Part shown: in pieces, positions 127-55,208 of the stretch
Numbering within the stretch: position 1 is the first letter of the stretch
Layout of the letters: each line of letters starts with the position of its first letter
NCBI GenBank assembly: GCA_951812945.1
Contig: CATOTB010000001.1
Span: 393,976-457,975, forward strand
Reading direction: 5' to 3'
Length of the DNA stretch: 64,000 nucleotides
Source: Candidatus Dadabacteria bacterium
GTDB lineage: Bacteria > Desulfobacterota_D > UBA1144 > Nemesobacterales > Nemesobacteraceae
Notes under the pieces: model-generated
Databases searched by the model: none
Seen by the model: the letters and a program-made list of their open reading frames with translations, nothing else
What the model was told of the DNA's origin: nothing
Made by a program: the position numbers and the translations under genes

Positions 127-278
127 CCCGTCCGCTTCAGGGCCCCTGATCAAACGTATTCATTCGGTTCCATACATACCTGTTTGAGCAAATCTTTCCC
201 CAAATGCGGTAATTGCGTCTCTTTTTGCAAGTTTTTTCTCAACTTCGTGATGTAAGAACCGAAGTTTAAAGGAATATC

Positions 279-306
279 TTGACACTGAGACTCATTTTAC
301 TACAAT
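279..306 (+). promoter_or_regulatory. sigma70-like promoter upstream of the giant adhesin gene (TTGACA-N16-TACAAT)
   Basis: TTGACA at 279-284, a 16-nt spacer, then TACAAT at 301-306, in an AT-rich region upstream of the 475/721 start candidates. Confidence 0.35.
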
Positions 307-474
307 ATGTTGTGTAGGAACAGGCGATTCGACCGAAGTTTCGCCTTAACGGATTAAATCGGAAGGTTTTTTTTGTCTTGGGCATGCGTATATGTGTGCC
401 TAGAGACTTAAATTAAAAAAGAAATTGGGTTGTCTTTTTGATTTCCTGAATTTCTTTATGCAAGACCGGCTAAT

Positions 475-3400
475 ATGGTGGAACATAAGCGGCTTGTCTG
501 TCGGGCGCAATGCCAGCCTGAATCCCTCTCGTCCTCGCATCGGGGTGAGAAAACGGCTGAGCCGACCCCGGACCGGACAAGTTCCCAGATCAAGGTTCTT
601 GGAACCTTATTTTTCCTCTTTTGTCTTAGGGGACTGCGTGCGGTATGCCCCTCATCCCTTTTCACCGTTAGGAAAAGAGTAAACCTGAGAAGCGGAGTCT
701 GCCTGCTGCTGTCGGCATACATGCTGTCGATGTTTCTCTCTCCAACCGCGCATGCCCAAACCCTTGAATTTGCCGCAGATAGCTATAAGGTGACGGATAC
801 CACGGAGAAAATTATTCGGGGCAGGCTTGAATATGATAATGGCCAGGGAGTATGCGATGATTATTTTACAGATGATGACGCAATGGTTGCATGCGCGGAG
901 TTAGGCCATGTACGCAGAGAGGGGAGAGCGCTGCTAGGATTGACTGAATCCGGTAACGACGACTTCCTGCTGGATAATTTAATTTGTGACGGAGATGAAG
1001 ACAGTCTTAGTGAGTGTAGTAAAGCCGGTCGCCCGGGTGATGGGGGAGGAGGAGATGGTGACCACAATTGCAGAGACAGTGAGCATACGGGTGTTGTCTG
1101 TTACACAGAAGTCGTCAAACCGAAAGCACCTGTGCTAAGCGGGGCTCCCGACCCGGAACATGGAGACACGGCAATACTCTCTTGGACTGCTCCAAAAATC
1201 GAATTCACGGGCCACAACATTAATTACATAGAATCCATAGTTGATAACTATGAACTCCAGGTGTCGGAGGATGGCAGTACGGGCTGGACAGATGTTTCTA
1301 CCGGTATTCGATCTATAAGAAGAGATTTTCGTCATAGCGGTCTTTCCTCCGGAACGTGGCATTACAGGATCAGAGCTGTTAACACTGTGGGCAATGGTCC
1401 GTATTCGAACGTGGCCGAAGTTACTCTTGGAGGGAATGGGAGGCCCGTATTTTCCGAAGGAACTCCTGCTACGCGTTCTGTACCAGAGAACACCGTTGCA
1501 GGAGAAAACATTGGTGGCCCGGTTGCGGCTACGGGTTCAGAGAGCTACTTGCTTGGTGGCGCGGATGAGAACTCGTTTGATATTGATGGAACTACGGGGC
1601 AGCTGAAGACAAAGGCGGCACTTGACTATGAGGACAAGAACTCTTATTCGGTTACGGTTACCGCCCAGCATAATGGGAGTGCGACATCAATAAATGTGAC
1701 AATTTCAGTAACCAACGTGGATGAACCTGGGACGGTGACTTTGTCTGCTTCGGAACCGCGGGTAACTATGGAGGTAACCGCAACTTTGGAAGACCCTGAT
1801 GGTTCCACGACAAACGTCACGTGGGAGTGGCATAGGTCAACTGACAAAAACAGCTGGACCTTGATCAGTGGCGAAACAACCGCTAGCTACACGCCGGATG
1901 TAGACGACGAGCTGCATTACCTGCGGGCCACGGCCTCATATACGGATCCAGAAGGTTCAGGAAAAAGTGCTGAGGGGATTTCAGAAAACGTGGTGCCGGA
2001 TGAGAACTGGCCGCCCGAGTTCTCCGGTGAAACTGCTACGCGTTCTGTGGCCGAGAACACCGATGCCGGAGAAAACATCGGAGATCCTTTTACGGCTACG
2101 GAACCGGAGAGAGATACGCTTACCTATTCGCTTGGAGGTACGGACGCGGCTTCGTTTACTGTTGAAACTATTGACAATTCCGATGATACCTATTCCGGGC
2201 AGATAAAAATCAAGGATTCGCTTAACTATGAGCACAAGAATTCTTACTCGGTTGATGTTATCGCTGAGGATTCTTTAGGTGCGGGCGACACTATCAAGGT
2301 GACCATCAACGTGACTGATGTGGATGAAGACGGAAAGGTAACCCTGTCCCCTGTGCAGCCTCAGGTAGATACGGCGTCGACCGCGACTTTGGAAGATCCA
2401 GATGTTCCCGTATCGAGTGTCACGTGGAAGTGGTATAAGTCATCTAGTCGGAACAACAGCTGGAGTCTCATCAGCGGTGCTACGAGTGCCAGCTACACGC
2501 CGGTTGCGGGCGACGTGAGTAATTACCTGCGGGCAACGGCGACCTACACAGATCGGCACGGTTCCGGTAAAACCGCACATGGAATTTCTGACCTCGTGGT
2601 GCGCGTGGCACCGGTGACAAACAACTCACCCGAATTTCTTTCTAATACACAAAACACCTTTTCCGTGACCGAGAATACCCCTGCTGGAGAAGATGTTGGA
2701 GAGGTCACAGCTACGGATTCGGATACCGGAGATGTGCTTACTTATTCGCTTGGCGGTACGGACGGGACTTCGTTTCAACTTGAAGACCAGACTTCCGGGC
2801 AGATAGAGACCTATGCGGCACTTGACTATGAAATCAAAAATTCTTACTCGGTCGTAGTTACGGCCAAGGATCCGTCCAATGCAAGCGACACTATTACGGT
2901 GACTATTAACGTAATCGATGTGGATGAAGACGGAAAAGTAACTCTGTCTCCTTCCCAGCCGCGTGTGCGCAATGCGGTGAGAGCTAGGCTTACAGAACCC
3001 GACGGCGGTCTCTCTAATCTCAACTGAGAGTGGCATAGATCACTCGACAAGAGCGACGGCAGCTGGAGCCCGATCAGTGGAGAAACAAGCGATCGTTACA
3101 CGCCTGTTGCGGACGATGTTGGTTATTACCTGCAGGCGACTGCGTCTTATGACGACAAGCACGGTACCGGAAAGGAAGTACAGGCGGTTTCCGCCAATCC
3201 GGTGCGTGTGGTGGGATCTACGACGACGAACAGTAGGGATACAAGGTCCACACCGACGATGGTGGTTCCGAGCGCGCCCCGGGATTTAACGGCGACGGGC
3301 GGCGACGGCGAGGTAACGCTTAGCTGGAGGGTACCGGATGACGGCGGTAGCCCCATCAAGTACTACGAATACAAGGTTGATAACGGTGCTTGGACTTCGA

Positions 3401-5655
3401 CCGGAGGAAAATCCACTACTTACACTGTTACGGGGCTTACCAATGGGCAGACTTACAGATTCGAGGTACGTGCGGTAAACAGCATCGGTCCCGGCGCCGA
3501 ATCTGCCCCGGTAAGCGCTACGCCCGCCGCAGTGCCGGGTGCGCCCCGGAATCTGAGGGGAGTGCGTGGCAATGCCGAGGTAACGCTTAACTGGGATGTG
3601 CCGGATAATGGGGGAGGTGCAATTGAGCGCTACGAATATAAGGTTGATAACGGTGCGTGGGACTCAACAGGAGGAAAATCCACCACTTATACAGTCACTG
3701 GGCTTGCCAGTGGGCAGACTTACGAATTCAGGGTACGTGCGGTAAACAGCATCGGTCCCGGCGCCGAATCTCAGCCCGAAAGCATTGCGCCCGCCACAGT
3801 GCCGGGCGCACCCCGGAATCTTACCCTAACATCGGGTGATCAATATATGATGCTCATATGGGAGCGACCAGCGGATAACGGCGGTCTTCCGATCACCGGC
3901 TACGAGTACAGCCAGAAGGAAGAGGATGGGTCCTTTGGCAGTTGGATCCCCATAGATGAAAGCGGTCCTAGGGAAACGAACGAAACCAGCTATACGGTCA
4001 CGGGCCTTAAAAACGGTACCATTTACTCCTTCCGGGTGCGCGCGGTGAACGAAGTGGGTCCGGGAGATCCTTCAGCCGAAGCCACGGCCGAGGTGAATAC
4101 TCCCTCTTTCCGGCGCGCAAGGCGCGCGAGCCTGAACATCCTTCCGACATTCGGGCGGACCATGCTCAGGAACTCTGTTGACGCACTTACCTGGCGTCTT
4201 GACAGCGCGCTTTCAGGATCATACACGCGGACGGGAATGTTCAGGCTTATGGATCAGCACGCGGGCCTTCACGAAGTCATCGGAGATGACATATGGGATG
4301 ATCCGGACCAGTGGGAAGAGCTAAGCCTCGAAGAACTGCTTTACGGGTCTTCCTTCATAATAGAAGCCGGTGTGATGCTCAAAAAACCGAAGGAGAACCC
4401 TAAAGAAGCTCCGAAGGAACACAAAAGATATACAGAAGAATACTCGGGGGAACAGATAAGAGAGTATCCGGAGGAAGATTCCGCGGATAAGAACATGTGG
4501 ATTGAAGAGGATGAAAAACCCATGATCGTCGAGAGAAGAGGCGATATCGGATTCTGGGGCAAGGCGGACTACAATAATCTTTCGGTCTCAAGCGACGAAT
4601 GGTTTGCGTGGGACGGGCGGATTGTGAGCGGTTACATGGGAGTTGACAGGTGGCTTAACGAGAAGGTGCTTACGGGATTTTCCGTGTCCTTGACGAAGGG
4701 GAATTTCGATTATACGGACACGACGCCTGGAGAAGGGGGAAGGGGTGATTACTACGTCAAGATGCTGAGCGTGTCACCGTATGTCTCCTGGTTCCTGTCC
4801 GAGGATGCTTACCTTTGGGGCTCGGTTGGCTACGGCCGCGGGCAGGTAGACATAGACGACGAAGAGGTGCAGAGCGTCGCCACAAGCGACCTGAGCTACA
4901 AGTCGGTGGCAGCTGGAGGAAGAGGCAGGGTGTTTGACGTGGGAGACACGACTTTTGCTCTTAAGAGCGAAGCGTTTAAGGTGTGGATGGACGTGGAAGG
5001 CGACGACTACCTGATCGACGAGATGTCGATAGGGGTGCACCAGTTGCGCCTCAGCATGGAGGGAAGCTACGAGTACCGCTTCGCGTCCGGAACCTGGTTC
5101 AATCCTCTGGTCGAGGTAGCGCTTCGCCACGATGGCGGAGACGGGGAGACGGGCACAGGGGTCGAAATAGGAGGAGGATTCCTCTATGAGAACCCGAACC
5201 TGGGTCTCAGCATCTCGGGCAGGGGGCGCTGGCTTGCGGCGCACAGCTCGGATGAGTTCAGCCAGTGGGGAGTGGGAGGAGCCGTGATCTTCGATACGGG
5301 AGGGGACAAGCGGGGGGCGCTGTTCAGCGTGGCGCCTGAATGGGGAGACACCTCAAGCGGCGTTGACGGTCTCTGGGAGCGAGGAGTGGAAGGACTGTCC
5401 TCAGAGGATGACGGGCGCAATGACATGCATCTTGACGCTGAGTTCGGATACGGACTCGCGGCTCTCGGTGGAGACGGGCTCTTTACGCCTTACAGCGGTC
5501 TCAGGCTCGGTGGGGACGGGCGGCGGCACTACAGGCTCGGCAGCCGTCTTGATCTCGGGCGCTCGGCAAGCTTTAATCTTGAGACCCAGCGCAGGCAGAG
5601 CGACGCCGCGAAACCCGAGCATGGAATCATGCTTAGAGGAAAGCTTAATTTCTGA
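475..5655 (+). CDS. Giant autotransporter-like surface adhesin: signal peptide, SRCR domain, FN3, 3x (cadherin + Ig-like) units, 3x FN3, acidic linker, C-terminal outer-membrane beta-barrel. The frame is interrupted by one in-frame TGA at 3025-3027, so it may be a pseudogene, a sequencing error or a readthrough site.
   Basis: Six-frame ORFs 475..3027 and 3202..5655 are in the same frame, and 3028..3201 has no stops. The signal-like segment is VCLLLSAYMLSMFLSPTAHA-QT; the SRCR motifs are VCDD..DA.V.C..LG...SLSEC...HNC...GVVCY. The cadherin repeats show LDYE.KNSYSV.V.A...INVT..NVDE. The C-terminus ends ...MLRGKLNF. The true start (ATG 475 vs ATG 721) is uncertain. Confidence 0.7.
808..1107 (+). 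other. SRCR (scavenger receptor cysteine-rich) domain within the adhesin
   Basis: IIRGRLEYDNGQGVCDDYFTDDDAMVACAELGHV...LLDNLICDGDEDSLSECSKAG...GDHNCRDSEHTGVVCYT aligns block-for-block with the group A SRCR consensus (RLVGG..G.VCDD.W...DA.VVCRQLGCG...LD.V.C.G.E.SL..C...HNC.H.EDAGV.C). Confidence 0.7.
1438..3200 (+). repeat. Three tandem ~580-bp coding units, each a cadherin-like domain plus a beta-sandwich 'VTWEWH...YLRATA.YTD..G.GK' domain
   Basis: Protein-level repeats: ...PVFSEGTPATRSVPENT.AGENIG...LDYE.KNSYSV...NVT..NVDE.G.VTLS...LEDPD......W.W..S.....W..ISG.T.ASYTP...D...YLRATA.YTD..G.GK. Confidence 0.75.
3265..3805 (+). repeat. Near-identical tandem duplication of a ~270-bp FN3-encoding unit
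   Basis: VPSAPRDLTATGGDGEVTLSWRVPDDGGSPIKYYEYKVDNGAWTSTGGKSTTYTVTGLTNGQTYRFEVRAVNSIGPGAES is repeated almost verbatim, with long identical DNA stretches. The out-of-frame ORFs 3390..3590 and 3657..3839 are mirror artefacts of it. Confidence 0.8.
4534..5655 (+). other. C-terminal autotransporter-type translocator (outer-membrane beta-barrel) region of the adhesin
   Basis: Alternating amphipathic beta-strand pattern, Gly/Asp-rich loops and a terminal aromatic (…RGKLNF-stop), preceded by an acidic linker (EEYSGEQIREYPEEDSADKNMWIEEDEKP). Confidence 0.55.
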
Positions 5656-5746
5656 TCGGTTTTTCGGACGGGGTTTGGAATGTCGGCCGGTTCCCTTTTT
5701 CGCCAGATGAATTCTCAGGCAGGAATCTGCGTTTCTACGAAAACTG

Positions 5747-9421: not shown

Positions 9422-10192
9422 ATGGAAGAGAAAAAAACTTTTGGAGATGTGGTTTCGCTCGCCAAGCGCCTTCGCGCTCCCGGAGGCTGCCCGTGGGACA
9501 GGGAGCAGACGCTCGAATCGCTTCGGGCGTATGTTCTTGAAGAGGCCTACGAGGTAATACAGGCAATAGAGCTCGGAGACATAGACGAGCTTGTCGAGGA
9601 GCTTGGCGATTTCCTCTTCCAGGTCGTTTTCATTTCCCAGATAGCAAGCGAAGAGGGCAAGTTTGATATAGGCGATGTTACGCAGAGACTCCACGACAAG
9701 CTCGTAAGAAGACACCCTCACGTATTCGGGGAAAAAAAGGCCAAGGATGCGGCCGACGCCATAAGAACCTGGAATGCCGAGAAGCTTAAAGAGAAAAAAG
9801 GGAAGACCTCCCTTGAGGAAATACCCAGGGCCATGCCCTCTTTGATGAGAGCGCAGAGGGTCGGGGAAAAAGCGGCCCGTGCCGGGTTTGACTGGAACGA
9901 CACCTCCTCGGTTCTTGCAAAGGTAAAAGAGGAGCTGCTTGAGCTTGAGCGGGAGATGGAAGCCGGTGAGAAGAACAAGTCCCGGGAGGAGTGGGGAGAC
10001 CTCGTTTTTTCAATGGTGAGCCTCGCGAGGCATCTTGACATTGACGCCGAGACCACATCCCATGGGGCTGTTTCGAAGTTCATAGAGAGATTTTCCCGGC
10101 TTGAGGAAAAGGCGCAGGCTGAGGAAAAAGAGATAAAAGCTCTTTCCATGGAGCAGATGGACGAGATATGGGAAGAGGTAAAAAAGCCGTAG
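9422..10192 (+). CDS. mazG: Nucleoside triphosphate pyrophosphohydrolase MazG
   Basis: PGGCPWDREQT...EEAYEV.....D...L.EELGD.L.QVVF, plus a second EEWGDLVFS repeat. GGGGAG RBS precedes ATG 9422. Confidence 0.85.
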   Translation: MEEKKTFGDVVSLAKRLRAPGGCPWDREQTLESLRAYVLEEAYEVIQAIELGDIDELVEELGDFLFQVVFISQIASEEGKFDIGDVTQRLHDKLVRRHPHVFGEKKAKDAADAIRTWNAEKLKEKKGKTSLEEIPRAMPSLMRAQRVGEKAARAGFDWNDTSSVLAKVKEELLELEREMEAGEKNKSREEWGDLVFSMVSLARHLDIDAETTSHGAVSKFIERFSRLEEKAQAEEKEIKALSMEQMDEIWEEVKKP

Positions 10193-14949: not shown

Positions 14950-16659
14950 ATGATTCAGGATAATGATACTACGGATTCAAATGAAAAAAGCTTTGAGGAG
15001 TTGCTTGATGAAAGCATGGAATCGCGCTTGAGCGAACCCGAGAACGGGGAAATAGCGAAGGGAAGGGTTATAAGGATTGACTCTGACGCTGTTTTCATAG
15101 ACCTCGGGTTCAAGTTCGAGTGCATAGTTCCCATAAACCAGTTTCTAAACAAAAACGGCGAATATGAAGTCTCGGTGGGCTCGGAGATAGAGGTGCTGGT
15201 CGAAAGACCGAACCCGAACACAGTCAGGGCCTCCAAGCAGAAAGCGGACCAGCTCAGGGAAAAAAAGGCGATCGAGGAGAAGTTCAAAAACAAAGAGCCC
15301 GTCGCCACAAGGATTCTAAACAGAGTGAAGGGCGGTTTTAACTGCGATATAGGACAGGGCAGCCCTTTTAAGGTTTTTCTTCCCGGTTCTCAGATCGCTC
15401 TGCGGCCGGTTGCGGATTTTGACGAGATGGTTGGCCAGACGATCGAAACCCGTATTATCCAGAACAACGATAATGGCATAGTCGTATCAAGAAGGGTAAT
15501 TCTCGAAGAGGAAAGAGAGGAGAAGAGAAAGGAGACTCTTGCTACCATCTCGGAAGGCCAGACCGTTTCTGGAAATGTCGTCAAGATAATTGATCCCGGT
15601 GCTTTTGTGGATATAGGGGGCATAGAGGGGTTTGTTCCGATAGGGGAGCTTTCCTGGGGAAGGGTTAGGCACCCGGGAGATGTTCTCAAGGAAGGTCAGG
15701 ACGTACAGGTCAGGATTCTTAAGCTTGAAATTGAAAACGGAAAAATAACCCTCGGAGTGAAGCAGACCACTGAAGACCCGTGGGAAACCATACAGCAAAG
15801 ATACGATGTCGGCGGCAGAGTCAAAGGGAAAGTGGTTTTCGCGGCTGAATTCGGCGTGTTCGTCGAGCTTGAACCGGGAATAGAGGGACTCGTGCACGTA
15901 AGCGAGCTTTCCTGGGTTAAGAATTTCCGCCACCCGAGCGAAGTCGTTTCCATCGGAAGCGAGATAGAAGTCGCTGTTTTGGGAGTAAAGCCCAGGGAAA
16001 GAAGGATTTCGCTTAGCCTCAAGCAGATACAGGAGAACCCGTGGGATGAGTTCAAGCGGAACAATCCTCCGAACACCAGGTTGAGCGGAACCATAAGAAA
16101 TGTCACCGAACTCGGGGTTTTCGTAGAGGTTGCGCCGGAGATGGTCGGGCTTGTGCGTCCCGAAAATCTAAGGTGGGAGGGGGAAGTAAGCCCCCTTGAG
16201 GTTTTCTCAGGCGAAGACGTCGGAAAGGAAATAGAACTTGTGATACTGAACGTCATCCCGAGGCAGAGAAAAATCGGACTCGGAATAAAGCAGCTTACCC
16301 CGGACCCCTGGAACAAGGTGCTTCGGGACTACAAGGTGAACGAGACGGTGGTCACTTCCAAGATAGAGGAGATTCTTGATAACGGAGTTACGGTGGCGCT
16401 TGCCGACAACGTGAGGGGCTTTTACGCTATCCGCGAATTCCAGGGCGATGAGTTAAGCCGGGAATCTCTTAAGGTCGGCGACGAGATAAGCGGCTTGGTC
16501 ACGGGTTTTAACAAGCCCAAGCACCAAGTGAACCTCAGTCGCAGGAGACTTGAGAAAAAACAGGAAAAAGACACTATGAAAGACTTCGCGTCATCCCAGC
16601 AGGAAAGTTCCTCCAAGCTAGGTGACATCCTGAATGAAAAACTCAAGGCCCTTGACTGA
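14950..16659 (+). CDS. rpsA: 30S ribosomal protein S1
   Basis: Six S1 (OB-fold) repeats (G.V.....G.FV.L..G..GL.H.SE.SW); 569 aa; follows cmk. Confidence 0.9.
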   Translation: MIQDNDTTDSNEKSFEELLDESMESRLSEPENGEIAKGRVIRIDSDAVFIDLGFKFECIVPINQFLNKNGEYEVSVGSEIEVLVERPNPNTVRASKQKADQLREKKAIEEKFKNKEPVATRILNRVKGGFNCDIGQGSPFKVFLPGSQIALRPVADFDEMVGQTIETRIIQNNDNGIVVSRRVILEEEREEKRKETLATISEGQTVSGNVVKIIDPGAFVDIGGIEGFVPIGELSWGRVRHPGDVLKEGQDVQVRILKLEIENGKITLGVKQTTEDPWETIQQRYDVGGRVKGKVVFAAEFGVFVELEPGIEGLVHVSELSWVKNFRHPSEVVSIGSEIEVAVLGVKPRERRISLSLKQIQENPWDEFKRNNPPNTRLSGTIRNVTELGVFVEVAPEMVGLVRPENLRWEGEVSPLEVFSGEDVGKEIELVILNVIPRQRKIGLGIKQLTPDPWNKVLRDYKVNETVVTSKIEEILDNGVTVALADNVRGFYAIREFQGDELSRESLKVGDEISGLVTGFNKPKHQVNLSRRRLEKKQEKDTMKDFASSQQESSSKLGDILNEKLKALD

Positions 16660-42323: not shown

Positions 42324-44222
42324 CTAGAATGTTATGCGCGCTCCGAGACTGAACTCGTGGTTGAGTTCAGAGTTGTTGCCGAAGCGCCCCGAGTAGCCGA
42401 CGGAAATTTTCGTCCGGCTGCCGATGTTGGCGGTGAGGCCGCCGCCGGCGTTTACCCATTGGTTCGGCGGCTCGAAACCCGAGATAGTAAAGCGGCCGGA
42501 CATGGTGTTTGAGCCCGCGGTGACCGAAACGGGATCGTCGTTAAGCTCTCTCTCATAGGCGACGCGGAGGTATGGGAGCAACCTTTCGCTTAGACCCAGA
42601 TTTCCTTTGACTTGATAGCCCGCTCTCGCAACCAGGGAATCGCGTTCAAAGTCCGAGAAGTTCATCGAGGTGGACGTGCTGCCGTTTTCACTGTAGCCGT
42701 CGATCTTCTGATCGAGCCATCCGAGCCCTAGAAACAGATTATGTCTGTAACTCTCGGATACGCTTGGAATCCAGCCCACTTCAACATCGGTTCCGAACTG
42801 ATAAGAGCTTGTGGAACCGTGCTCCGTGCGCGACGCCGACGCGATCTGGATCGAGCGGTTGACGTCAATTGATGCTCCGCCTGCGTTAAAAGCGGCGCTC
42901 AGGTAAAAAACATCGAAAATAATGGTGCCGTGCAGCGAGCCGGTTACCACGGTGCTGTCGATGCTTGCGCCCGAGACGTCGTTATCGTGGTTCCCGAGGC
43001 TCAATGCCGCTCCCAGGTAAAGTTCATCCCCGACGCGGTAGTCGGTACCCAGGGTGAGCACATGCATTTCGGCCTTCGTTTCACCCAGATGGGACAGAGA
43101 TTTGAGATTGTATTTGCCTATCTGTCCCCTCGCGTAGCTGTGCCATTTCCCAGCCGAATTGCTAGGCCCGAGATTCAGCATCCGCTCCGTAAACACTGCG
43201 TCACGGTGTGCCCTGGCAACTTCTACTCCTCCCTCTCCCCCAAGCGATACCTGAACCGGGGCCGTGAGAGTTGAGATTACCATGCTCCCAATTGCCGCAT
43301 GAGCAGCCCCGCTTGGATGGGAGCCGTCCGCGAAAAGGTAGTTCTCACCGGCGTCGGGAGGCGACAAATAGCCGGAGTCGGTCGGGCCGCAGACTATTGA
43401 TTCCGGTTCCCCGCTGGGGCGGAAGGGGTTTGAACCGGGGACGCAGGCCGTCCCCTCGGTGTCGGTGAACCCGTACCTTTCAGGGTCTTCAATTATTTCA
43501 TCCATCAGGGCGAAGACATTTACGGGAACGATGGCGTGTTCCTGGGAGCTGAGACCCGAGTCCAGCGCTTCATTATAGACGCGAGTTAGAGAGGAGAGCC
43601 CAGCTGCGGCTTCGGCTCCGGCGCGTCGGGCGTCCGCGGTTGCCCCGAGGTCGGGCAAATTCAGCACTACCACATGGCGCGCGCCGGCATCCTGAAGGGT
43701 TCGTATCTGATCCAGGTATGCTTCGGCCGCCTCAAGAGTGCCGTCGATGGCACCTTGGGAATCGGATGGATTTTCCCCGGCGACGGCTCTTATGTCGTTT
43801 GCGCCGCCCCAGATCATGTAGAGCGTATCAGGGTCGGCGTTTTCTCCGGAGAGGTGCTGGTCAATCTGGCGTTCTGTTCTCTGCATCGGTACCGAGTTCT
43901 CTTCACACGGACCGGACGAGTTTACACAGGCGCCTCCCCAGGCGTAGTTTGTTCCGCCGGCGAGGGAATTGGTTCCCGGCGTCCCGAAAGTCTGGGCCAC
44001 GATTTCGGCCCAGACCGGATCCGGATTCGTGGTGAAGCTGGTGCCGGGCGGAACTTGGAGTCCGAAAGACTGGGCGACAGGCGTGTAGAACTCGGCGATA
44101 TTTCCGGAGTCGCTCAAGCTGTCGCCGAAGACGACGACGGAATTGAAAGTTTGTGCCCGCGCGCCGATGACAAATCCTAACAGGATCGTAACAGCAAGGA
44201 CAAGACGCATATATCGAAACAT
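42324..44222 (-). CDS. GDSL/SGNH lipase-esterase autotransporter (EstA-like)
   Basis: Signal peptide MFRYMRLVLAVTILLGFVIGARA; SGNH block I VVFGDSLSDSGN; C-terminal beta-barrel ending ...LGARITF; GAGGAGGG RBS before ATG 44222. Confidence 0.75.
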   Translation of the reverse strand: MFRYMRLVLAVTILLGFVIGARAQTFNSVVVFGDSLSDSGNIAEFYTPVAQSFGLQVPPGTSFTTNPDPVWAEIVAQTFGTPGTNSLAGGTNYAWGGACVNSSGPCEENSVPMQRTERQIDQHLSGENADPDTLYMIWGGANDIRAVAGENPSDSQGAIDGTLEAAEAYLDQIRTLQDAGARHVVVLNLPDLGATADARRAGAEAAAGLSSLTRVYNEALDSGLSSQEHAIVPVNVFALMDEIIEDPERYGFTDTEGTACVPGSNPFRPSGEPESIVCGPTDSGYLSPPDAGENYLFADGSHPSGAAHAAIGSMVISTLTAPVQVSLGGEGGVEVARAHRDAVFTERMLNLGPSNSAGKWHSYARGQIGKYNLKSLSHLGETKAEMHVLTLGTDYRVGDELYLGAALSLGNHDNDVSGASIDSTVVTGSLHGTIIFDVFYLSAAFNAGGASIDVNRSIQIASASRTEHGSTSSYQFGTDVEVGWIPSVSESYRHNLFLGLGWLDQKIDGYSENGSTSTSMNFSDFERDSLVARAGYQVKGNLGLSERLLPYLRVAYERELNDDPVSVTAGSNTMSGRFTISGFEPPNQWVNAGGGLTANIGSRTKISVGYSGRFGNNSELNHEFSLGARITF

Positions 44223-44337
44223 TAAGGGCCCTCCTCGGTATTTCGTCTTCAAGGACAATTTTACCATAAATAGCGCTCGCTGCGTGACGGTAAAAGCCGG
44301 ATTCGCGCGATTTGCTTTCCCGGGCGCAGCACGCGAA

Positions 44338-54617: not shown

Positions 54618-55208
54618 ATGCTTAAAAACGGAAAATTCATTCTGGCGTCTTCTTCTCCGAGAAGACGGGAACTGCTCGCGAAGGTGGGTCTTGATTTCGA
54701 GGTGGTTCCGCCGCGGGTGCGCGAAAGCGCCTGGGAGGGGGAGACGCCGCTTGATTTCGCAAAGCGCATGGCTAGGGAAAAGGCGCTTAGCGTTTCAGGT
54801 GGTGTGCTGCAGGGGCGAGTAGTCGTGGGCAGCGACACGGTCGTCTCCGTTTCGGGAGAAATTCTTGGCAAGCCCCGCGATGAGGAAGACGCATTTTCGA
54901 TGCTGCAGAAACTCTCGGGGAAAACCCATGAAGTCATAACCGGCTTCTGCGTTGTAAGATCTCCCGACGAGGTTCTTTACCTTGATGCCACCCGTACCGA
55001 GGTGCGGATGAAGTCCCTTGATACCCAAGAGATGCGTCGGTACATTAAAACCGGGGAACCCATGGACAAGGCAGGTGCGTACGCCATTCAGGAAGCCGGA
55101 TCGTGTCTTGTTGAGTGGATAAGAGGTTCCTACACGGGTGTCGTCGGGCTTCCGCTTTTTGAACTGCTCTCCGTACTCTCTGATATAGGCATCGTGGAAT
55201 CCGGATGA
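54618..55208 (+). CDS. maf: Maf-like nucleoside triphosphate pyrophosphatase
   Basis: ILASSSPRRRELL; 196 aa. Confidence 0.85.
   Translation: MLKNGKFILASSSPRRRELLAKVGLDFEVVPPRVRESAWEGETPLDFAKRMAREKALSVSGGVLQGRVVVGSDTVVSVSGEILGKPRDEEDAFSMLQKLSGKTHEVITGFCVVRSPDEVLYLDATRTEVRMKSLDTQEMRRYIKTGEPMDKAGAYAIQEAGSCLVEWIRGSYTGVVGLPLFELLSVLSDIGIVESG

Follow-up and report, generated by a model that had tools for sequence, protein, structure and literature searches.

A probable recent nonsense mutation in a giant type Va autotransporter adhesin gene of Candidatus Dadabacteria

An in-frame TGA divides the gene of a giant surface adhesin in the stretch of Candidatus Dadabacteria DNA analysed here (64 kb, hereafter "the window"). 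The TGA replaces a tryptophan codon, and our analysis leads us to view it as probably a real nonsense mutation (TGG→TGA), very recent and confined to this strain, in a gene that is accessory and encodes a giant adhesin of the type Va autotransporter class. A sequence-only reading of the window had offered three explanations for the interruption, namely a recent nonsense mutation, a sequencing or assembly error, and leaky readthrough. The first of them is the best supported, given that the closest relative has TGG at the site, that the other carriers of the gene have TGG as well, and that further relatives have deleted the gene.

The adhesin gene and its internal stop codon

Direct reading of nucleotides 3019-3033 gives CTC AAC TGA GAG TGG. 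Single-frame translation of 475-5655 on the forward strand yields 1,727 codons and, besides the terminal TGA, a sole internal stop at codon 851 (3025-3027); the disrupted frame, 5.2 kb in length, is otherwise open. The stop-to-stop segments 442-3027 and 3028-5655 have a common frame, and the earliest start codon found downstream of the premature TGA is GTG 3202. It had been claimed from the letters of the sequence that the open reading frames 475..3027 and 3202..5655 lie in one frame with no stop between 3028 and 3201, and the translation upholds this claim. The depositor's gene calls begin at ATG 721 (768 aa) and ATG 3259 (798 aa). Exact look-up of the 850-aa and 817-aa products of the two open reading frames retrieved no match; the depositor's start codons differ from those used here. 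The coordinates of the relevant features are collected in Table 1.

We examined the domain content of both halves using Pfam. The upstream half harbors an SRCR domain (aa 115-209), an fn3 domain, three cadherin domains, and Ig-like domains that include a SCAB-Ig match. Its open reading frame thus contains, from the N-terminus, a conserved extension, a signal peptide detected by inspection (…RSGVCLLLSAYMLSMFLSPTAHA↓QT), the SRCR and fn3 domains, two complete cadherin and Ig-like units, and a partial third unit that is cut inside its Ig domain. The downstream half has three fn3 domains and an autotransporter beta-domain (PF03797) that scores 32.2 bits, with the cutoff set at 26 bits. Hence, the segment 3' of the TGA comprises the rest of the third Ig domain, the three fn3 domains, a linker, and a beta-barrel that ends in …LRGKLNF followed by the terminal TGA. 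This C-terminus, with its terminal phenylalanine, is kept in all orthologues. Altogether, 475-5655 is the gene for a type Va autotransporter of Candidatus Dadabacteria with SRCR / fn3 / cadherin-Ig / fn3 architecture.

A C-terminal beta-barrel domain, one hallmark of type Va autotransporters, is therefore present in the window as PF03797. The other hallmark, a signal peptide and a passenger on the same polypeptide as the barrel, is lacking in the window and is found in the intact gene of the closest relative (L012, described below) and in 11 other orthologues. Because the TGA at 3025 parts the signal peptide and the passenger from the barrel, the window gene can be considered a disrupted member of the type Va family. 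The sequence-only reading had anticipated an 850-aa product devoid of the translocator barrel, in agreement with the PF03797 match falling only in the half downstream of the TGA.

Independent expression of the downstream half was considered and ruled out. Translation from ATG 3259 gives an N-terminus (MVVPSAPRDLTATGGDG…) without a hydrophobic core, and no signal peptide was found in it; the best candidate start yields MVVPSAPRDLTATGG…. Neither GTG 3202 nor ATG 3259 is preceded by a convincing ribosome-binding site.

Two traits of the adhesin N-terminus are worth describing on their own:

(i). Nucleotides 475-760 encode a conserved extension of ~70 aa (MVEHKRLV…), which precedes the hydrophobic core of the signal peptide and is found in many orthologues. 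Gene callers differ in the start codon of the adhesin, either ATG 475 or ATG 721. A role as an extended signal-peptide region is conceivable, but Pfam returned no ESPR match for it.

(ii). The SRCR domain, encoded by 817-1101 (PF00530, E = 3e-10), lies at the distal tip of the adhesin. It is a bacterial copy of a eukaryote-like domain, and its presence at the tip is conserved across Dadabacteria family members.

Three repeat units of ~600 nt (~200 aa), each made of a cadherin domain followed by an Ig-like domain, are found in the gene. The SCAB-Ig match of unit 2 places a conserved tryptophan near profile position 30 of 98. When the units were aligned, TGG 1822, TGG 2425 and TGA 3025 fell in the same column, which bears out the earlier proposal that the stop stands at a conserved tryptophan. 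Conservation extends to the family: among 367 repeat instances from 121 homologues, the motif position is occupied by W in 365 and by L in the other two.

Location of the stop on a tryptophan codon has, in turn, a trivial side. The adhesin gene contains 35 TGG codons, and 70 of its 105 possible transition-type nonsense changes go through them. As a consequence, a stop at such a codon needs no special explanation and is not in itself a hint of readthrough.

Table 1. Features of the adhesin locus (positions are those of the window)
Feature	Position	Strand	Observation
Segment cleanly absent from six close relatives (L014-L019)	269..5700		~5.4 kb; promoter region and whole adhesin gene
N-terminal fragment, open reading frame	475..3027	+	850 codons from ATG 475
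Hypervariable or mosaic 5' block of the adhesin gene	475..1450	+	Holds 78 of the 100 codons that differ from L012
Repeat unit 1, cadherin + Ig-like	1444..2013	+	Trp codon TGG 1822-1824, motif VTWEWH
Repeat unit 2, cadherin + Ig-like	2014..2628	+	Trp codon TGG 2425-2427, motif VTWKWY
Repeat unit 3, cadherin + Ig-like	2629..3219	+	Trp codon replaced by TGA midway through the Ig domain, LN*EWH
Premature TGA stop, codon 851	3025..3027	+	TGG (Trp) to TGA via G→A transition at nt 3027
Remainder of the adhesin gene 3' of the TGA	3028..5655	+	Frame fully open; presumably without translation, or translated through leakage only
Type Va translocator beta-domain with C-terminal Phe	4552..5652	+	PF03797, residues 509-709 of the downstream half

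Other same-frame junctions in the window were examined as candidate interrupted genes and discarded. Those at 10192/10193, 36194/36195, 38828/38829 and 42323/42324 separate adjacent genes that are independent of each other (MazG / OMP; methyltransferase / GlnD / NadB) or mark where a gene stops (a GDSL autotransporter), and the junction at 54794/54795 (−) falls in a stretch without recognisable coding sequence. The GDSL autotransporter is a second autotransporter of the window (42324-44267, −), whose passenger (…VVVFGDSLSDSGN…) resembles a GDSL lipase and whose C-terminal barrel ends in …GARITF; it appears to be intact.

Relatives that carry the adhesin gene have TGG

A homology search with the read-through protein retrieved many uninterrupted proteins of 1,300-2,000 aa that share the architecture of the window gene. 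A scan of species-representative genomes detected nine syntenic loci, all in Candidatus Dadabacteria MAGs (filed under Thermodesulfobacteriota), each with a single intact open reading frame of 1,379-1,861 aa. Two additional loci (L010 and L011) also carry the adhesin gene in the common order, which is ferredoxin, adhesin, ACC carboxyltransferase on the opposite strand, Fe-S assembly protein, M24 peptidase, MazG, and OMP. The adhesin-bearing species are ~89% identical to the window in ACC.

A much closer relative, L012 (ENA ERZ18545484, ptg004013l), was found by exact-sequence look-up of the neighbouring ACC protein. Identity between L012 and the window is 98.7% over 16.7 kb and reaches 99.8% in ACC. 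In L012 the adhesin is encoded by one intact gene of 1,739 aa. The codon homologous to 3025-3027 is TGG, and the 45 nt on each side of it are identical to those of the window.

Altogether, the homologous codon is TGG in all 12 adhesin-bearing relatives (L012, the nine species-level genomes, L010 and L011), and the gene is a single open reading frame in every one of them. Comparison with orthologues and strain variants, which had been proposed as a check, thus gave a uniform answer that includes a conspecific strain. The ancestral codon is TGG: the 12 carriers, L012 among them, and the repeats of the family indicate that the TGA of the window derives from it by one G→A change at nt 3027. As in a pseudogene, the locus carries a disabling lesion relative to intact syntenic orthologues.

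The TGA allele is known from one genome only. A 90% protein cluster has as members the two fragments of the window and the intact L012 protein only, and a codon-degenerate DNA pattern spanning the junction, with either TGG or TGA, found no match among JGI metagenome contigs.

Whole-gene deletion in close relatives

Six other loci (L014-L019), from several independent samples, were found by exact look-up of the Fe-S assembly protein. Their ACC genes are 96.4-98.4% identical to that of the window, and the whole adhesin gene is missing. In these genomes the ferredoxin gene abuts ACC, and the homologue of window positions ~1-268 is joined to that of ~5691/5706 onward. Since more distant species carry the gene at that very site, its absence from the six loci is interpreted as a deletion. 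Sample ERZ18545484 holds both L012, where the adhesin is present, and L014, a circular 1.71-Mb genome where it is absent. Hence, the locus is found in three states (intact, nonsense-mutated and deleted) within one narrow Dadabacteria clade, and deletion of the whole gene by close relatives indicates that the adhesin is dispensable in the clade.

Comparison with L012 and the possibility of an error

The divergence between the window and L012 was examined on both sides of the stop codon. Downstream of it, 5 of 875 codons differ, four of them by synonymous and one by non-synonymous changes, and neither indels nor extra stops were found. Such a small number of differences means that the lesion is either very recent or an error. 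At the divergence of L012, only ~0.1 further disabling changes would be expected; therefore, the intact downstream frame has no discriminating power and would be equally expected from an error or from a gene that still functions. The five differences are likewise too few for a dN/dS comparison to reveal relaxed selection.

The possibility of an error deserves attention. In that case the organism would have TGG, and a consensus or base-calling fault in the 937-kb contig would have placed a wrong base, or promoted a rare read variant, at nt 3027. Several observations are those that one would expect from such a fault: nt 3027 is a single-base difference from the conspecific L012 within an otherwise identical ±45 nt, it is one of only ~2 mismatches in its kilobase, the downstream frame is perfectly preserved, and no second assembly carries the TGA. 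However, nt 3027 does not lie in a homopolymer (context CAACTGAGAG), and substitution errors are in general rare at non-homopolymer sites of a polished consensus. Furthermore, no error signature was seen elsewhere in the window. Only five indels distinguish it from L012 in 17.6 kb, three of them in-frame in the adhesin N-terminus, one intergenic, and one at 16595, and no window gene is thereby shifted out of frame with respect to relatives. At 16595, the sole frameshifting difference, the window and L014 coincide and L012 deviates. Last, the adhesin is dispensable in the clade, and this raises the prior for a real lesion. On balance we consider an error unlikely, if far from negligible. Mis-assembly by repeat collapse was discarded, as the repeat units (63-82% identical to each other at the DNA level) are too divergent.

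Two additional differences between the window and L012 were noted:

(i). Most codon differences in the adhesin gene are concentrated in its 5' block (codons 1-323), which encodes the signal region, the SRCR domain and the fn3 domain. The block contains the in-frame indels, of 3, 3 and 33 nt at 758, 774 and 845, respectively, and its flanks (474 nt on the upstream side and the gene's downstream half) are each ~99.8% identical to L012. Different segments of the adhesin best match different species. These sequence comparisons suggest a mosaic or recombined tip of the adhesin.

(ii). The difference at 16595 is a 1-nt length change (CCC/CC) at the 3' end of the gene for S1 ribosomal protein (14950-16659). 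It alters the C-terminus of S1, which measures 569 aa in both the window and L014 but 556 aa in L012. The difference is probably an error or a variant in L012, not in the window.

Stop codon usage and UGA readthrough

In this lineage, TGA does act as a stop codon. In the window, 26 of the 48 long open reading frames end in TGA, which is the commonest terminator, and the M24 peptidase and MazG genes, whose ends are conserved, close with TGA or with TAG depending on the relative. The statement of the sequence-only reading that genome-wide recoding does not take place is thus confirmed.

Apart from the bare in-frame UGA, nothing points to insertion of selenocysteine or to an alternative code that assigns UGA to Trp or Gly. 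Regarding the latter, codes with a reassigned UGA (tables 4 and 25) show in-frame UGA in conserved genes and do not employ it as a terminator; in the window, however, TGA ends most genes, it is exchanged with TAG at orthologous gene ends as described above, and no other gene has an in-frame TGA. Selenoproteins, in turn, have a bacterial SECIS hairpin and homologues with Cys or Sec at the relevant position. Here, homologues have Trp or Leu, never Cys or Sec, no SECIS-like structure was detected, and no Rfam family matched the 2500-3600 region. Folding, Rfam, stop usage and the residues found in homologues therefore in effect rule out both selenocysteine and an alternative code, to which we grant practically no credence.

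Readthrough of UGA as Trp at a level meaningful for function is a different matter, as it might be achieved by near-cognate tRNA-Trp, by a suppressor tRNA, or by a tRNA-Trp with a 4-bp anticodon stem. UGA is the leakiest stop codon; reporters in wild-type E. coli show ~2-4% readthrough, with Trp-tRNA competing with RF2 (PMC10570021), and insertion of Trp at codon 851 would restore the wild-type residue. Suppressor tRNAs exist in ~0.3% of standard-code bacterial genomes, and 4-bp-stem variants of tRNA-Trp promote UGA reading (PMC13092985). The intact downstream frame is also compatible with readthrough.

The features that distinguish programmed readthrough were, however, missing at this site. 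The stop is absent from the conspecific L012 and from the 11 other carriers, all of which have TGG, so TGA 3025 is no conserved recoding site. Neither a stimulatory context nor a downstream RNA structure was found: the 80 nt that begin with the TGA showed no folding advantage over shuffled controls (z = +0.36), and six bona fide genes of the window end in the very TGA-G context. A scan of the 64-kb window for a suppressor detected no tRNA genes. Efficient suppression throughout the genome would also carry a cost, with TGA ending more genes here than any other stop.

Leaky readthrough, proposed earlier as one of the three explanations, is thus left without specific support, and we view functionally meaningful readthrough as very unlikely. 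If it did occur, the strain would make a truncated periplasmic fragment plus a reduced dose of wild-type adhesin. A related proposal, that UGA is read as Trp at a substantial rate (for instance by a suppressor tRNA or a 4-bp-stem tRNA-Trp whose gene lies elsewhere in the genome) and the nonsense allele is a dosage switch rather than a null allele, seems to us highly improbable. Generic background leakiness of UGA is another question, and by analogy with E. coli it may yield a few percent of full-length protein.

Phase variation by repeat slippage was also considered and discarded: the context of the stop (CTCAACTGAGAGTGG) lacks a repeat tract, and the change is a substitution, not an indel.

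Discussion

A recent nonsense mutation, our favoured explanation, leads to a simple model for the fate of the adhesin. The G→A change at nt 3027 would turn a Trp codon into TGA, and translation would end at codon 851, inside the third Ig-like domain. The 850-aa fragment bears a signal peptide and would be exported to the periplasm; since the C-terminal beta-barrel is not made, the fragment would be unable to cross the outer membrane or to anchor in it, and there would be no surface display. The 2.6 kb located downstream of the stop would yield no functional product, as a signal peptide and a good ribosome-binding site are lacking. The wild-type protein would be restored only by those ribosomes, a few percent at most, that insert Trp at the leaky UGA. 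The adhesin allele would then be null or strongly hypomorphic, and the nonsense mutation might be viewed as the first step of a gene loss that sister lineages finished by deletion. For annotation, a practical consequence is that 475-5655 calls for a single entry, a disrupted gene, in place of two proteins.

Loss of an autotransporter in natural populations has a precedent in Bordetella pertussis, different isolates of which have lost pertactin through stop codons, IS insertion or deletion of the entire gene (PMC3966384). In both cases a host-associated bacterium has some strains with an inactivated type Va surface protein, where a premature stop removes the C-terminal barrel, and other strains of the same population with a whole-gene deletion. 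In contrast, the organism of the window is an uncultured Dadabacteria MAG whose allele is found in one carrier and is known from sequence alone, and the selective agent in pertactin-deficient B. pertussis is vaccine-driven immunity.

The background UGA readthrough described in E. coli (PMC10570021) provides another term of comparison: a UGA that replaces UGG and is read as Trp restores the wild-type protein, and a level of a few percent is plausible in the window too. The stop of the window differs in that it is strain-specific, lacks any special context or structure, and gives no sign of either an above-background rate or selection.

The adhesin also resembles the eukaryote-like adhesins (cadherin, fn3) of sponge-associated bacteria. 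The family combines SRCR, cadherin and fn3 domains, and sponges are a commonly reported source of Dadabacteria, the lineage to which it belongs. A difference is that the function of the family is deduced from its domains only, and that the finding reported here is a lesion in one copy.

The lesion looks like ordinary gene loss caught early, not like a recoding signal. Considered in isolation, it would be one more adhesin knocked out by a point mutation. The value of the locus is that it offers a snapshot of gene loss, with intact, nonsense-mutated and deleted states side by side in a narrow clade, and this picture suggests that fluctuating or negative selection acts on the large eukaryote-like (SRCR, cadherin, fn3) adhesin.
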